From Escherichia coli (GTDB lineage: Bacteria > Pseudomonadota > Gammaproteobacteria > Enterobacterales > Enterobacteriaceae): DNA of 64,000 nt. Positions within the stretch are counted from its first letter, which is position 1; every line of letters starts with the position of its first letter. The notes beneath the pieces were generated by a model. That model had not been told where the DNA came from. It did no database searches and worked only from the letters and a program-made list of their open reading frames with translations. Below are positions 45,519 through 50,997 of the stretch, in pieces. The position numbers and the translations under genes are program-made. Where the stretch lies: NCBI RefSeq assembly GCF_046105845.1, contig NZ_CP151004.1. One strand, 5' to 3'.

Positions 45519-46742
45519 TTATGGGATTATATTCTGGTAATGATTTGATAAGCGAATTCTTTTGCCAGTTGGTATTTCTATTTCCACCCCATAATTTATA
45601 GTTTTTTCATCAGGTAGCGATCTCTTTAAATAAGGTGCGCATGACATTTTTTTTGGGTTAAGCGTCTCGCGTTGAAATACTTCGAATTGATATTCAGACA
45701 TTTCTGCCCATGTTTGAATTTTATTGTATCGGGAGAGTGTCGTAAAGGCTTTAACTTGCTTATAACATTGTTTTTTGAATTCTTGCTGATATTTTAATAT
45801 GTCATTGTATGAAATATTGGTTATCCTGGCCTCTAAGAATTTAATTATTGTCGAAGCAATTTCCGCTTTTGCTCGTAAAAAGTTGTCATTAATGGTTAAT
45901 AATGTTGAAAATAAACCTTCGATTTGTTTGTCAAGATATTGTTCGTCTTTATATAATTTGGGGGTAGGGTGTTCTTTATGTGAAAAAATAGTGTCACCTA
46001 AATTTGCGTCAGTGAAATTTATATTAAGTAGATCTTCGAAATAAAACCTTGACAAGGTTAGAACGAACCCGGACAGGTTCTGTCCTGTCATATTGAAATC
46101 AATAAAGTTGGTTCCGGCAAAGACTTTCATCCTGTTTTTATTTTCACTGTGCTCAATATATAACTTCGTCATTTTTTGATACAGGTTTTGAATATCTTTT
46201 ATATTAGTCGGTAAGTCAGCTCGTTGTTCAGCAATAAAATTAGTATCTGAAAACGTGGTTTGGACACTGAATGTTATGGGTATTCCCTCTTCTACGCTAA
46301 TTTTAGTTATGATTGCCTTGTCGGGTTTAGGATTAGCGACAACAATGATTCGACATTCAGCACTTTTGTTCTTTTCGTATCTAATGTTATTAATTTGATT
46401 AAGTAGTCCCTGTGCCTGCCGCGTAAGTGGTGTCGAACTTATCGATTCAATGTTAGTAATAAGACTTACAAGTTGAGCCACAACTTTGGAGTAGTCTGCA
46501 TTTGTATATGTGGTGTTCGTGCGGCACGCATAAATTTGTGGGAGGTGTTTCCGCGCTAAATCATATTGTTCAGGGTTGTATCCTTCTCCAGAGAATGGGG
46601 AATTAATGGGTTGTTGTTCTTCCTGATTATCACAAGGCCACATCGGTGTGTCTGGTGTTTTAACATTGTCGGTATCTGTTGTGCGGTTATAAATATCGCC
46701 GTGATATGTATTTATCATACTTGGGGTAAAGTCAATTGACAT
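45519..46742 (-). CDS. yhiS: YhiS-type hypothetical protein, intact 407 aa; polar N-terminus and a pentapeptide-repeat-like tract
   Basis: ATG at 46742 with SD aagga 6 nt upstream; very AT-rich; no signal peptide or TM segment; central tract [45 protein letters not shown]. Confidence 0.8.
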
Positions 46743-47322
46743 AACATTCCTTATTGTTCATCTATTTCGCTAAATTTTTGTAAATCGGAGAATTAGAGCA
46801 GGAATGGATTTTCTTCTACGCGGAAATAAACACAATGCGCCATATCTTCCTGATATAATTACCTTTAACTTCCCTTTCATTTCCACCCGGTAATATTTGT
46901 GTATAAAAAAAGGGCAGTGATAGTATCGTAAAGGAAAACGTTAACAACTATCAAAAAGCGCTCATTTTAAAAAGTTATGATGTTCTCCGATAGTGTGTGA
47001 AGTGATATTTTTGTGATGTTTTAGATGTGTAATAATGAACCAGGTTAAAGTGTATTTAAAAATGTGTTGTATTGGCGACTGAAATCTGCCCTTTAAAAGG
47101 GGGGATAGCACTGAGACAAAGAGGCATTGCTTCTCCGATAAAATGTCAGAGAAGCATGATTGCGTGGTGATTGTCGATTGATGACTTACTGACGGATCCG
47201 TCATCATTCTCAAAGCATTAGTTAAGTTATTTGTGATTTTTAAGGATTATCCTATCTATGATTTTCTACTCAGAAGGATAAGGCACTCACAATGCTCCTT
47301 ATAGTTTACTGCTGGCATCTAT

Positions 47323-48324
47323 TTAAAATAGCATTTGAGTCAAATAGCCCATCAAGATAGCCATACCTAAGATAACCGTCAGGAATGCAGCTATCATCGG
47401 CATTCTGAACATTGATTTAAGTAATATCACTTCCGTCAGGCTTGCTCCGGCACTGCCGATGATTAATGCCATTAATGCTCCCAGCCCCATTCCTTTTGTC
47501 ATCAGAACAGATGCCAGAGGGATAACCGCCTCTGCCCGGATATACAGCGGAATTCCGACAACGGCGCTCAATGGGATGGCGAAGGGATTATCTGCCCCTG
47601 CATGAGCGGCAATCCACTCTGAGGGAATAAAGCCATAAATAAAAGAGCCTATTAATACCCCTAACAAAAGATATGGCAGTACATCTTTAAACTGTTGCAA
47701 CGCATCTTTGGTGGCTAGTTTTATGGGATTAATACTTACCACAGCTTTGGTACTGCAACAGTTTACTACAGGTTTCTCAATGGCTTTAGCCGCTGGACTA
47801 CAGCAACTCACTTTTATTGGCGTATATGTCGTCCCCGGCGAAGTTTTGGCTGGAGCACAACAATTTGCTGATGAGCTTTTACTGGCAATGATATGACGTT
47901 CAAATCCCAGGGAATCCAGGATAATACTGGCAAGTACGGAGACGCCGGCGGCGATAATCGCGTACAACAAGGTAACTTTCCAGCCAAAGGTCACCCACAT
48001 TAACCCGACGATAATGGGATTAAGTAATGGGGAAACAAATAAAAAAGTGAGGGTCGGACCAAACCCGGCTTTCGCTGATAACAATCCACGTAACATGGGG
48101 ATTGTCGAGCAACTACAGAACGGGGTAACGGCTCCCAACAGAGCAGCCAGGAGATAACCTCTCCCTTTTCTGGCCCCCATCATCTGCTGGATTTTATGGT
48201 CTGGCACCTTTTGTCTTATCAGGCTGACACCGGCACTAATCACTATAAACAGCAAAGAAAGCTCGACGGCGAGAAACACAAACATCTCTGCGGCATCTTG
48301 CAGCATCGCAAGCCAACTACTCAT
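47323..48324 (-). CDS. Cys-rich polytopic permease (DUF318 / ArsP-like, TPFCSCS motif)
   Basis: Start taken at ATG 48324 (MSSWLAMLQ...), which has SD gagg; an alternative ATG lies at 48336. At least 8 hydrophobic segments, motif AVTPFCSCSTIPML, central loop with three CC pairs. Confidence 0.8.
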   Translation of the reverse strand: MSSWLAMLQDAAEMFVFLAVELSLLFIVISAGVSLIRQKVPDHKIQQMMGARKGRGYLLAALLGAVTPFCSCSTIPMLRGLLSAKAGFGPTLTFLFVSPLLNPIIVGLMWVTFGWKVTLLYAIIAAGVSVLASIILDSLGFERHIIASKSSSANCCAPAKTSPGTTYTPIKVSCCSPAAKAIEKPVVNCCSTKAVVSINPIKLATKDALQQFKDVLPYLLLGVLIGSFIYGFIPSEWIAAHAGADNPFAIPLSAVVGIPLYIRAEAVIPLASVLMTKGMGLGALMALIIGSAGASLTEVILLKSMFRMPMIAAFLTVILGMAILMGYLTQMLF

Positions 48325-48349
48325 ACGTAACCTCATTGAATAAATCTAT

Positions 48350-48369
48350 ATTTCCAGAATAATCGAAAT
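48350..48369. promoter_or_regulatory. 20-bp dyad box 1 (ATTTC-N10-GAAAT) in the divergent permease/regulator promoter region
   Basis: atttccagaataatcgaaat; second near-identical copy 37 bp away. Confidence 0.4.
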
Positions 48370-48386
48370 GAAATTCAGATCAAGAT

Positions 48387-48406
48387 ATTTCTGGTATTAT
48401 CGAAAT
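48387..48406. promoter_or_regulatory. 20-bp dyad box 2 (ATTTC-N10-GAAAT), candidate operator of the adjacent ArsR-like regulator
   Basis: atttctggtattatcgaaat; about 25 bp upstream of the regulator ATG. Confidence 0.4.
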
Positions 48407-48431
48407 ATCAACCAGACAAAGGGGGTGTCAT

Positions 48432-48728
48432 ATGCAGTTGGAAGAAGTTGCTAAAGCGCTGAAAGAGCTAGGTCACCCGACCCGTTTGTTCATATTCAAA
48501 CACCTGGTCAAAGCGGGGGAACAAGGTTTGCCGGTCGGTGAGTTGCAAAAGCAGCTTGGGATACCCGGCTCTACACTCAGTCACCATATTTCAGCACTGG
48601 TATCGGTAGGGCTGGTCAAACAAAACCGTGAGAGTCGGACGCTGATGTGTGTTTCGCAATACGCAATGCTGGAAGCGATAATTGAATTCTTACGCGAGGA
48701 GTGCTGCGTAAATAGCAAAATTGCCTGA
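48432..48728 (+). CDS. ArsR/SmtB-family winged-helix regulator, atypical (no CVC site; C-terminal CC pair)
   Basis: 98-aa ORF with ATG and strong SD (aaaggggg); HTH region LGHPTRLFIFKHLV...LGIPGSTLSHHISALVSVGLV; C-terminal EECCVN. Confidence 0.8.
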   Translation: MQLEEVAKALKELGHPTRLFIFKHLVKAGEQGLPVGELQKQLGIPGSTLSHHISALVSVGLVKQNRESRTLMCVSQYAMLEAIIEFLREECCVNSKIA

Positions 48729-48777
48729 TGCGCTACGCGCTACAGATTTCATGCCATATATTGAATTTGCACGGTTT

Positions 48778-48816
48778 TGTAGGTCGGATAAGACGCGTTA
48801 GCGTCGCATCCGACAT
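48778..48816. repeat. REP (repetitive extragenic palindrome) element
   Basis: tgtaggtcggataagacgcgttagcgtcgcatccgacat resembles canonical E. coli REP units (gccggataaggcg...cgcatccggc); lies between convergent genes. Confidence 0.6.
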
Positions 48817-48861
48817 AAACGAAGCGCACTTTACCAACTATCGGCAGTGGATATCGCCGCT

Positions 48862-49287
48862 TTATTTCAGGCGTTTACCCGCTTCATCAACCACTTTCTC
48901 GCCATCTTCCTTGGTGAACGCGCCTTGTTGCGCATTTGGCAGAATTTCCAGCACCACTTCTGAAGGGCGGCACAGGCGAGTTCCCAGCGGCGTCACCACA
49001 ATCGGGCGATTAATCAGAATCGGGTGCTGAAGCATAAAGTCGATTAACTGATGGTCAGTAAATTTATCTTCTGCAAGGCCCAGTTCCTCATACGGCTCGA
49101 CGTTTTTACGCAGCAGCGCGCGTACGGAAATCCCCATATCGGCAATGAGTTTGACCAGCTCATCGCGCGTTGGCGGTGTTTCCAGATAATAGATAATGGT
49201 CGGTTCTGTACCGCTGTTGCGGATCATCTCCAGCGTGTTACGCGACGTGCCGCAGGCCGGGTTGTGATAAATGGTAATGTTGCTCAT
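48862..49287 (-). CDS. arsC: Arsenate reductase (glutaredoxin-coupled) ArsC
   Basis: 141-aa ORF, N-terminal MSNITIYHNPACGTSRNTLEMI with catalytic Cys. Confidence 0.95.
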   Translation of the reverse strand: MSNITIYHNPACGTSRNTLEMIRNSGTEPTIIYYLETPPTRDELVKLIADMGISVRALLRKNVEPYEELGLAEDKFTDHQLIDFMLQHPILINRPIVVTPLGTRLCRPSEVVLEILPNAQQGAFTKEDGEKVVDEAGKRLK

Positions 49288-49299
49288 ATCAATATCTCA

Positions 49300-50589
49300 T
49301 TACAAAGTGAAAGAGAGACGTAGCGCCAGCGCAGCCAGCGTCACAAAAAGCACCGGCAGGGTCATGATAATTCCTGTACGGAAGTAATATCCCCAGCTGA
49401 TAGTCATATTCTTCTGCGAAAGTACGTGCAGCCAGAGTAGCGTAGCCAGGCTACCAATTGGGGTAATTTTCGGTCCCAAATCGCAGCCAATCACGTTGGC
49501 ATAAATCATCGCTTCTTTGATAACGCCAGATGCCGTGCTGCCATCAATGGACAACGCGCCAACCAGTACCGTCGGCATATTGTTCATAATAGAAGAGAGG
49601 AAGGCGGTGAGGAATCCGGTGCCGAGCGTCGCGGCCCACAGGCCGTTTTCCGCCAGCACGTTGAGTACGCCAGAAAGATATTCCGTTAGTCCGGCATTGC
49701 GCAGGCCATAAACCACCAGATACATGCCGAGCGAGAAGATGACAATCTGCCAGGGCGCACCGCGTAGCACCTTACCCGTATTAATTGCATGACCGCGTTT
49801 AGCGACGGCAAATAATATCAGCGCGCCCACTGCCGCAATGGCGCTGACCGGAATGCCGAGCGGTTCCAGGACGAAAAATCCCACCAGCAGAAACAGTAAA
49901 ACAACCCAGCCAGTTTTGAAGGTTGCAGGATCTTTAATCGCTTCTGCGGGAGATTTCAGCAGCGCCATATCGTAGTTCTGCGGAATATCTTTGCGGAAAT
50001 AGAGATGCAACATCACCAGCGTGGCAACAATTGCGGCGATATCCACCGGCACCATCACCGATGCGTATTCGCGAAAGCCGAGGCCAAAGAAATCTGCGGA
50101 AACGATATTCACCAGGTTGGAGACAATAAGCGGCAGGCTGGCGGTATCGGAAATGAATCCGGCCGCCATCACGAACGCCAGCGTAGTGCCTTTACTGAAC
50201 CCTAAAGCCAGCAGCATGGCGATGACAATTGGCGTTAAAATCAGCGCCGCACCATCATTGGCAAACAGAGCTGCAACGGCAGCACCGAGCAGGACAATCC
50301 AGGTGAACAGCAAGCGACCGCGTCCATTGCCCCAGCGTGAGACGTGCAGCGCTGCCCATTCAAAAAAGCCGGACTCATCCAGCAGCAGGCTGATGATAAT
50401 AACGGCAATAAACGCAGCCGTCGCGTTCCAGACGATATTCCACACCACCGGAATATCACCCGGATGTACCACGCCCGTAACTAACGCCAGTACTGCGCCG
50501 AGTGTTGCACTCCAGCCGATGCCTAAACCTTTCGGCTGCCAGATAACCAATACGATGGTCAGGACAAAGATAGCGCCTGCCAGTAACAT
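49300..50589 (-). CDS. arsB: Arsenite/antimonite efflux pump ArsB
   Basis: 429-aa polytopic protein from internal Met ([17 protein letters not shown]...). Confidence 0.95.
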
Positions 50590-50643
50590 AATGCCTCCCG
50601 GAAAAAACACATGTGCAAATCCATATGTGTTTAGATAAATTTT

Positions 50644-50997
50644 TTAACTACAAATGTTCTTACTGTCTTCGGAACAATTTTGTCGAGCCAGGTTGCGGAC
50701 AATCACCTGAACCTTTTCCTGTTCACATCGCCAGGCCTCATCAATAATTTTCGCCGCCCATGCTGGAATATGCGGTGATAAGCGGTAATGAACCCACTTA
50801 CCTTGCTTGCGATCCAGCAATAGCCCGCTTTCACGAAGAAGCGCCAGGTGGCGGGATATCTTGGGCTGCGACTGATCGAGGGCAGTACAGAGATCGCAGA
50901 CACATAACTCTCCCAGCTCGCTTAGCAGTAAAACGATGCCCAGACGGGTCTCATCAGCAAGAATTTTGAACAGTTGGATGGGTAACAGAAATGACAT
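50644..50997 (-). CDS. arsR: Arsenical resistance operon repressor ArsR (canonical, CVC metal site)
   Basis: 117-aa ORF with ELCVCDLC As(III)-binding motif and ArsR HTH. Confidence 0.95.
   Translation of the reverse strand: MSFLLPIQLFKILADETRLGIVLLLSELGELCVCDLCTALDQSQPKISRHLALLRESGLLLDRKQGKWVHYRLSPHIPAWAAKIIDEAWRCEQEKVQVIVRNLARQNCSEDSKNICS

Follow-up and report, generated by a model that had tools for sequence, protein, structure and literature searches.

A divergent regulator-permease pair beside the Escherichia coli arsRBC operon: a predicted organoarsenical resistance cassette of the SpArsR-arsP type

The arsC-yhiS locus

Here we describe a pair of divergently transcribed genes, encoding a small ArsR/SmtB-type regulator and a polytopic permease, on contig NZ_CP151004.1 of Escherichia coli (assembly GCF_046105845.1), of which a 64,000-nt stretch of one strand (the window) was analysed. 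The genes of the window come in the order gor, arsRBC (minus strand), the regulator-permease pair, a yhiS-like open reading frame (ORF), slp, dctR and chuS/chuA, and the pair itself is located between arsC (48862..49287, minus strand) and the yhiS-like ORF (45519..46742, minus strand). As judged from sequence comparison, it is the E. coli member of a known system, the one formed by the repressor SpArsR and the permease gene arsP in Shewanella putrefaciens 200, and represents no new kind of system. A preliminary description of this DNA had taken the pair for a metalloid-responsive module, possibly directed at trivalent organoarsenicals; the idea finds support in the Shewanella orthologue, which is selective for methylarsenite, MAs(III) (PMC12124457). 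The features of the locus are given below, where AfArsR denotes an ArsR protein of Acidithiobacillus ferrooxidans.

48432..48728, plus strand: gene of the SpArsR-type ArsR/SmtB repressor, a 98-aa ORF (Pfam and NCBIfam matches, PDB match, identity to SpArsR)
48648..48650, plus strand: codon of Cys73, the conserved third cysteine (near-invariant RTLxC; aligned with SpArsR Cys83)
48702..48707, plus strand: codons of Cys91-Cys92, predicted two-coordinate MAs(III) site (aligned with AfArsR Cys95/96 and SpArsR Cys101/102)
48325..48431, no strand: divergent promoter/operator region, two boxes, 37 bp from start to start
48350..48369, no strand: predicted operator box 1, ATTTCCAGAATAATCGAAAT, permease side (conserved in orthologous intergenic regions)
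48387..48406, no strand: predicted operator box 2, ATTTCTGGTATTATCGAAAT, regulator side (AGATATTTCTGGTATTATCGAA shared with Shewanella)
47323..48324, minus strand: gene of the ArsP_1 (DUF318) permease, 333 aa from the probable start at 48324
48106..48126, minus strand: codons of TPFCSCS, predicted substrate site (invariant in 83 aligned sequences)
47683..47919, minus strand: central hydrophilic Cys-rich loop, residues 140-218, with three CC pairs (hydropathy, structural model)
48862..50997, minus strand: adjacent arsRBC operon with its own type-1 CVC ArsR (context only)

The longest permease ORF spans 47323..48336 on the minus strand and encodes 337 aa. Translation probably starts from the ATG at 48324 (MSSWL..., 333 aa) instead of 48336, because this is the start in the RefSeq annotation and in all homologues and a GAGG lies 8 nt upstream of it.

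The regulator and its relation to SpArsR

As the preliminary description had it, the regulator is a 98-aa protein of the ArsR/SmtB family that lacks a CVC site. Its winged-helix domain is recognised both by Pfam (HTH_20, E = 2.4e-14; HTH_5, E = 1.3e-6) and by NCBIfam (HTH_metalloreg, NF033788, 61.9 bits at a cut-off of 55), and its only cysteines are C73, C91 and C92, none preceding residue 73. The neighbouring ArsR, on the other hand, carries ELCVCDLC and scores 231 bits against NF007528, the type-1 ArsR family, to which the 98-aa regulator gives no match. A type-1 site, CVC(x2)C in helix alpha-3, is ruled out by the position of the first cysteine; it is the alpha-3 CVC metal site with which the chromosomal and R773 ArsR proteins of E. 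coli differ from the protein described here, and they sense inorganic As(III)/Sb(III). The preliminary description also had the regulator ending in EECC. The vicinal cysteine pair is indeed there, but EECC is six residues short of the C-terminus.

The best relative of known structure in the PDB is AfArsR (6J05, E = 5e-10), which has a type-2 As(III) site. EECC aligns with its ENCC (Cys95/96), and in both proteins the CC is found at the end of the C-terminal helix. However, AfArsR senses inorganic As(III) and has a third ligand, Cys102, whereas the E. coli protein continues after CC with the cysteine-free VNSKIA and hence has no counterpart of Cys102.

Comparison with SpArsR gave 58% identity over 92 residues (E = 3e-41), with C91/C92 aligned to Cys101/102 and C73 to Cys83. 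The segment IPGSTLSHHISAL, taken to be the DNA-recognition helix, is identical in the two proteins. The SpArsR sequence used was translated from the biosensor construct in the supplement of PMC12124457; it comprises 105 aa and has CC at 101-102, in accord with the published numbering. RTLxC and (E/D)ECC hardly vary among about 120 regulator homologues, the most distant of which have 65% identity. The ratio of nonsynonymous to synonymous substitution rates (dN/dS) between the chromosomal copy and a plasmid copy of the pair, described below, is 0.02 for the regulator and 0.10 for the permease.

Chen, Nadar and Rosen reportedly described SpArsR of S. putrefaciens 200 in 2017 as an MAs(III)-selective repressor. 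Sallet et al. (2025, PMC12124457) made a biosensor by combining SpArsR (Sput200_1227) with the 222-bp stretch that precedes arsP (Sput200_1226). With SpArsR and the arsP promoter placed in E. coli, 1 uM MMAs(III) brought the output to 73% of the repressor-free signal, 50 uM As(III) to 9%, and MMAs(V), DMAs(V) and DMAs(III) gave no response (PMC12124457). Further reports describe SpArsR as having the vicinal pair without the third AfArsR cysteine and as responding to MAs(III) and not to arsenite (PMC11868830; PMC13236881). NdArsR, a second MAs(III)-responsive regulator in the same supplement (PMC12124457), has the same cysteine pattern and a similar box. As SpArsR also possesses all three cysteines (83, 101 and 102) and barely responds to As(III), a three-coordinate As(III) site made of Cys73 and Cys91/92, maybe across the dimer, is disfavoured.

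Predicted operators in the shared promoter region

The two ATTTC-N10-GAAAT boxes already pointed out in the shared promoter region turned out to be the only two in the window (48350-48369 and 48387-48406, both intergenic), against a chance expectation of 0.11 matches; two matches were obtained in 0 of 100 shuffles. Both boxes belong to a 37-bp direct repeat. The boxes are found again between the orthologous genes of the plasmid copy, Aeromonas, Citrobacter, Yersinia, Vibrio, Shewanella and Desulfovibrio, where the flanks have diverged. In 44 divergent pairs, each from a different species, boxes were counted with up to one mismatch allowed; their density was 8.5 per kb between the genes and 0.051 per kb in the flanks, and 42 of the 44 intergenic regions had at least one box and 33 at least two. 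The resulting consensus is tATTTCGA-N6-T(A/C)GAAATa. The 22 nt AGATATTTCTGGTATTATCGAA at the regulator-side box are identical in E. coli, S. putrefaciens 200 and Shewanella sp. ANA-3, and the arsP promoter of S. putrefaciens features a perfect ATTTCTGGAATTATGGAAAT along with a second box containing AGATATTTCTGGTATTATCGAA. The dyad boxes are, by prediction, conserved operators. Elsewhere in the window one-mismatch matches to the operator occur at chance level. Sigma-70 hexamers overlap the boxes, but they are no more numerous than in shuffled sequence, and promoters were not assigned.

The permease

The permease matches Pfam PF03773 (ArsP_1, DUF318) over its full length (E = 6.9e-53; residues 13-334 on model positions 3-293 of 294), in agreement with the family proposed for it earlier. 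The features on which that proposal was based are also in place: TPFCSCS at residues 71-77 (337-aa numbering), invariant in the 83 aligned sequences, and CC pairs at residues 159-160, 178-179 and 193-194, all within a 79-residue hydrophilic loop. A tPF-CSC motif defines ArsP cluster 2 (Yang et al., PMC4435449). As a clue to the substrate, however, the motif did not hold up: CSC is family-wide and is present also in Cu/Zn exporters and SaoE, and TPFCSCS is therefore no guide to what is transported.

Proteins of the ArsP family have about eight hydrophobic segments in a 4+4 repeat, with an optional hydrophilic insert between segments 4 and 5 (PMC2963123). The long-loop class, as well as ArsP homologues in the ars operons of E. 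coli, Yersinia and Aeromonas, was noted in 2010 (Castillo and Saier, PMC2963123). The hydropathy profile of the E. coli permease has eight peaks and the 79-residue central loop, and an internal repeat is seen in the helix pattern of its AlphaFold2 model. The model, obtained with the 83-sequence alignment, has a predicted local distance difference test score (pLDDT) of 86.4 and a predicted template modelling score (pTM) of 0.81; only the central loop is disordered (pLDDT < 50). Its helices are broken at two sites, 52-66/71-83 at TPFC and 249-260/264-276 at PLYIR. The permease models as a hairpin-containing transporter, resembling in its fold the DASS carriers and ArsB; the E. coli ArsB is a larger carrier, unrelated in sequence. 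The hairpin model fits the positive-inside rule much better than a plain model with eight transmembrane segments, and in the orientation that it implies the Cys-rich loop is probably cytoplasmic. Both the length and the sequence of this loop vary widely, and in most homologues it is Cys-rich with CC pairs.

In full-length comparison the permease shares 51% identity with the ANA-3 orthologue of Sput200_1226, where the loop also has several CC pairs. The arsenic island that encodes this orthologue in ANA-3 also encodes a second ArsP_1 paralogue, to which the identity is only 29%. A search of PDB sequences with the permease gave no match. In NCBIfam it scores 109.2 bits against the SO_0444 Cu/Zn exporter family (NF033936, cut-off 300) and 86.5 bits against SaoE (NF040736, cut-off 325); with scores so far under the cut-offs, membership of either family was rejected.

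Distribution in E. coli and on plasmids

At the arsC-yhiS locus E. coli is dimorphic. The pair is intact in 2224 of 5426 complete genomes (about 41%), a K-12-type deletion scar is present in 3170, and the two states together account for nearly all genomes. The spacer between arsC and yhiS in K-12 MG1655 (locus L091, 4664-4990) corresponds to positions 46743-48862 of the window and retains the last ~23 codons of the regulator (YTMLDAIIGISRREYCVNSKIA and the stop codon, 78% identical DNA) together with a permease fragment of ~41 nt. The preliminary description had regarded the pair as missing from K-12 and as extra in this strain. The former is true; the latter is not, because K-12 bears the scar of a deletion. 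The pair is ancestral and was lost from K-12, and is not an insertion in this strain.

A diverged copy of the pair (~83% DNA identity) resides on 647 PLSDB plasmids, of which 457 are conjugative; 400 of the plasmids are from Escherichia, 186 from Salmonella and 32 from Klebsiella, and many of the listed hosts are chicken, turkey, duck or swine. The plasmid-borne proteins are 85% (permease) and 94% (regulator) identical to the chromosomal ones. On the E. coli plasmid p2 (NZ_CP182385.1; locus L002, 7430-8895) the copy has IS26 next to it and no ars genes in the vicinity.

Two further observations concern the surroundings of the chromosomal pair. The gap between the convergent regulator and arsC genes is filled by palindromic repeats of the repetitive extragenic palindromic (REP) type (48735-48860), which explain many short matches to E. 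coli genomes and a spurious ORF at 48728-49030. The yhiS-like ORF (45519-46742) is intact in the window (407 aa) and matches no NCBIfam family, while in K-12 the gene is interrupted by IS5 and in strain 19KM1831 it has a frameshift.

Genomic context in other species

In the 80 species surveyed, only the pair itself is constant, and about 60 have the regulator adjacent. Genes of ars systems are found within 10 kb in Citrobacter gillenii (arsRDABC), Aeromonas aquatica, two Endozoicomonas (acr3-arsDA), Vibrio sp. CK2-1 and Shewanella sp. ANA-3 (beside arrAB-arsDABC), and at a larger distance in a Marinobacterium. Citrobacter prophages and Yersinia likewise have ars genes close to the pair, which in Yersinia has the opposite orientation to that in E. 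coli, and a Desulfovibrio mobile element carries the pair alongside arsR-arsM-arsP-trx-acr3. Among recurrent neighbour families the ars genes are the sole resistance genes. Since the ars architectures next to the pair vary, we argue for its repeated recruitment to ars loci.

Several of these loci have peculiarities of their own. Two ArsP_1 paralogues are encoded in the arsenic island of Shewanella sp. ANA-3 (L037, 6922-9358 and 9986-12649). One of them shares an operon with a canonical ArsR and two arsenate-reductase-like genes of the low-molecular-weight protein tyrosine phosphatase (LMW-PTP) type; the other has the SpArsR-type regulator as its partner, and after it comes a glutathione-synthase-like gene of eukaryotic type (205 bits, below the cut-off), which recurs in four Shewanella loci. 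In Citrobacter (L004-L006, 1230-7092), arsRDABC and the pair are flanked by lambda-P/DnaT-like replication genes and by DinI, RusA and lysis genes, and appear to be cargo of a lambdoid prophage. In Yersinia frederiksenii (L010, 4148-4651), an ArsN1-like N-acetyltransferase (132 bits, cut-off 170) is encoded between arsC and the pair; ArsN1 is the arsinothricin-resistance family, which makes this another organoarsenical-related neighbour. The Desulfovibrio sp. contig (L009, 1-5898) has type IV secretion system (T4SS) and relaxase genes, and the pair is on a stretch resembling a conjugative element, where it adjoins a cluster of arsR, an ArsM-like methyltransferase, ArsP_1, a thioredoxin-like protein, Fer2_BFD and Acr3. 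The second ArsP_1 of this contig lacks the Cys-rich loop and has an N-terminal CCC. Finally, the C-termini of the regulators are identical or nearly so in four unrelated genera, represented by Nitrincola, Salinicola, Pseudomonas saliphila and a Sphingopyxis metagenome-assembled genome (L070, L071, L085 and L086), which suggests recent horizontal transfer among them; the context of the pair in these four contains only an ISL3 transposase (next to the pair in L086) and no resistance genes.

Discussion

Our results place the E. coli pair next to SpArsR-arsP of S. putrefaciens 200. Both consist of a divergent pair whose regulator has the vicinal cysteines at the equivalent position and lacks a third cysteine of the AfArsR type, both have the same ATTTC-N10-GAAAT operators and the identical IPGSTLSHHISAL, and the partner permeases (51% identity, measured on the ANA-3 orthologue) have the same Cys-rich loop. 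The differences are that the E. coli regulator is without the 10-residue N-terminal extension and that the intergenic region measures 107 bp in E. coli, with boxes 37 bp apart, as opposed to 222 bp. Campylobacter jejuni ArsP belongs to the same PF03773/TCDB 2.A.119 family, by the account of both the preliminary description and TCDB, and conserves the C(S/T)C motif, but it is encoded within an ars operon and not with a regulator of its own. It is presumably of the short type (~315 aa) that has no long Cys-rich loop. SO_0444/Shew_3410 and SaoE likewise share the Pfam family and the CSC motif; in contrast, they have no arsenic context, and Shew_3410 adjoins ZntR (bioRxiv 10.1101/072470).

We consider it probable, at roughly 0.65, that the two genes form a cassette, complete in itself, by which trivalent organoarsenicals are sensed and exported, and which is orthologous to SpArsR-arsP. 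This reading is supported because orthology to SpArsR, the shared operator, orthology of the permeases, the varied ars contexts, the dN/dS values and the sensitivity of K-12 to MAs(III) all point in its direction. K-12 is indeed MAs(III)-sensitive and becomes resistant when given a heterologous arsP (bioRxiv 10.1101/2023.01.09.523296), and a member of the ArsP family, that of C. jejuni, is an exporter of MAs(III)/Rox(III) (PMC6205960). The most likely function of the pair would be derepression by trivalent organoarsenicals followed by their efflux.

The corresponding mechanism, in which we infer what the E. coli regulator binds, what the permease transports and how transport is energised, and the orientation and role of the loop, may be outlined as follows. 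Dimers of the repressor would bind the two dyad operators, 37 bp apart, in the shared divergent promoter and keep both genes off. Methylarsenite, and probably also related trivalent organoarsenicals such as reduced roxarsone, would be bound two-coordinately by Cys91-Cys92 at the end of the dimerisation helix, whereupon the repressor would leave the DNA. The induced ArsP_1/DUF318 carrier would then expel the organoarsenical using the membrane potential. It is predicted to consist of two inverted halves, each with a re-entrant helical hairpin, the first of which would hold CSC at its tip, halfway through the membrane. The central loop with its many cysteines probably faces the cytoplasm and may capture the substrate and pass it to the CSC site. 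One might go further and view the CC-pair loop as a built-in ArsD-like arsenic-capturing domain that confers another substrate range (aromatic arsenicals, among them reduced roxarsone, or arsenic-thiol adducts), and the spread on plasmids as the outcome of selection by arsenical feed additives with co-selection of antibiotic resistance; this extension is speculative and, on balance, doubtful.

A number of observations weigh against the organoarsenical cassette. In the 80 species surveyed, about 90% of orthologous pairs stand alone, far from ars genes. The nearest curated hidden Markov models of the permease are those of the SO_0444 Cu/Zn exporter and SaoE, and our literature search found no transport measurement for any member of the long-loop subfamily. 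Identities of 58% (regulator) and 51% (permease) leave room for shifted specificity. The conserved Cys73 (RTLxC, in the beta-wing) has no role in the proposed model. The source text of SpArsR was missing two letters, which were restored from the near-identical ANA-3 orthologue, the C-terminal two-thirds being in a single frame. Finally, the stand-alone arsR1-arsP of P. mercurii, possibly orthologous, was not induced by inorganic arsenic, a result that neither supports nor refutes an organoarsenical ligand.

How far do these and other data favour a different explanation? The regulator may sense MAs(III) while the long-loop permease has a substrate that differs from, or is broader than, that of canonical ArsP, with aromatic arsenicals, Sb(III) species and arsenic-thiol conjugates as candidates. 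This would explain why the pair coexists with a second ArsP_1 paralogue in arsenic islands: Shewanella sp. ANA-3 and the Desulfovibrio element each hold both types side by side, the two are only 29% identical, and the ars-operon type has no CC-pair loop. The glutathione-synthase-like gene that follows the permease in Shewanella and the two ArsP size classes noted in 2010 (PMC2963123) fit the same picture. However, regulators usually sense the export substrate of their partner, and paralogues may differ in regulation and not in substrate, which leaves a separate permease substrate unlikely.

We find it quite improbable that the pair is a sensor and exporter of a soft metal cation (Zn, Cd, Cu or Hg) in the manner of the SO_0444/Shew_3410 branch, with the cysteines of the loop and the regulator as metal ligands. 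The best NCBIfam match of the permease is the SO_0444 Cu/Zn exporter, the CSC motif is common to Cu/Zn exporters, the majority of pairs are away from ars genes, and the three conserved cysteines of the regulator could make a metal site. Yet the 109 bits scored against SO_0444 fall far short of the cut-off of 300, experiments show the orthologous regulator to be MAs(III)-selective, and ars genes alone represent resistance among the recurrent neighbours. Moreover, the characterised Cu/Zn members of DUF318, as far as is known, accompany regulators of the MerR/ZntR type, as in the pairing of Shew_3410 with ZntR, and not of the ArsR type. In favour of a metal, the DUF318 protein Shew_3410 is important under zinc stress (bioRxiv 10.1101/072470).

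A decaying, non-functional remnant is a very improbable description of the pair in E. coli. It has been lost from 58% of complete genomes, and in several strains the yhiS-like gene next to it is a pseudogene; on the other hand, both ORFs and the operators are intact, the dN/dS values are 0.10 and 0.02, and the pair is preserved in 2224 genomes and is spreading on conjugative plasmids. Least credible of all is a regulator of thiol-reactive oxidants or persulfides, as BigR, SqrR and YgaV are, coupled to export of a sulfur compound: YgaV and BigR are the next-best solved relatives (E ~2e-7) and the regulator does score 38.5 bits against NCBIfam BigR, but this is far under the cut-off of 155 (NF040642), no persulfide-dioxygenase or rhodanese neighbours were seen at the loci examined, and by our reading of the alignment the regulator has no cysteine in alpha-2 where BigR-type sensors have the one paired with their C-terminal cysteine, so that a BigR/YgaV-type sensor was rejected.

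Should the cassette confer resistance to methylarsenite or reduced roxarsone, several consequences would follow, although its biology would extend a known system and not found a new one. K-12, the standard methylarsenite-sensitive host, has lost the cassette, while about two in five sequenced E. coli keep it. Natural E. coli would then be split into populations resistant and sensitive to MAs(III) and reduced roxarsone, a split that would bear on gut arsenic metabolism and on the proposed antibiotic-like role of methylarsenite in microbial competition. Given the use of arsenical feed additives, the plasmid-borne cassette could also aid the co-selection of resistance plasmids in livestock, and its regulator would provide a native E. 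coli sensor part for organoarsenical biosensors.

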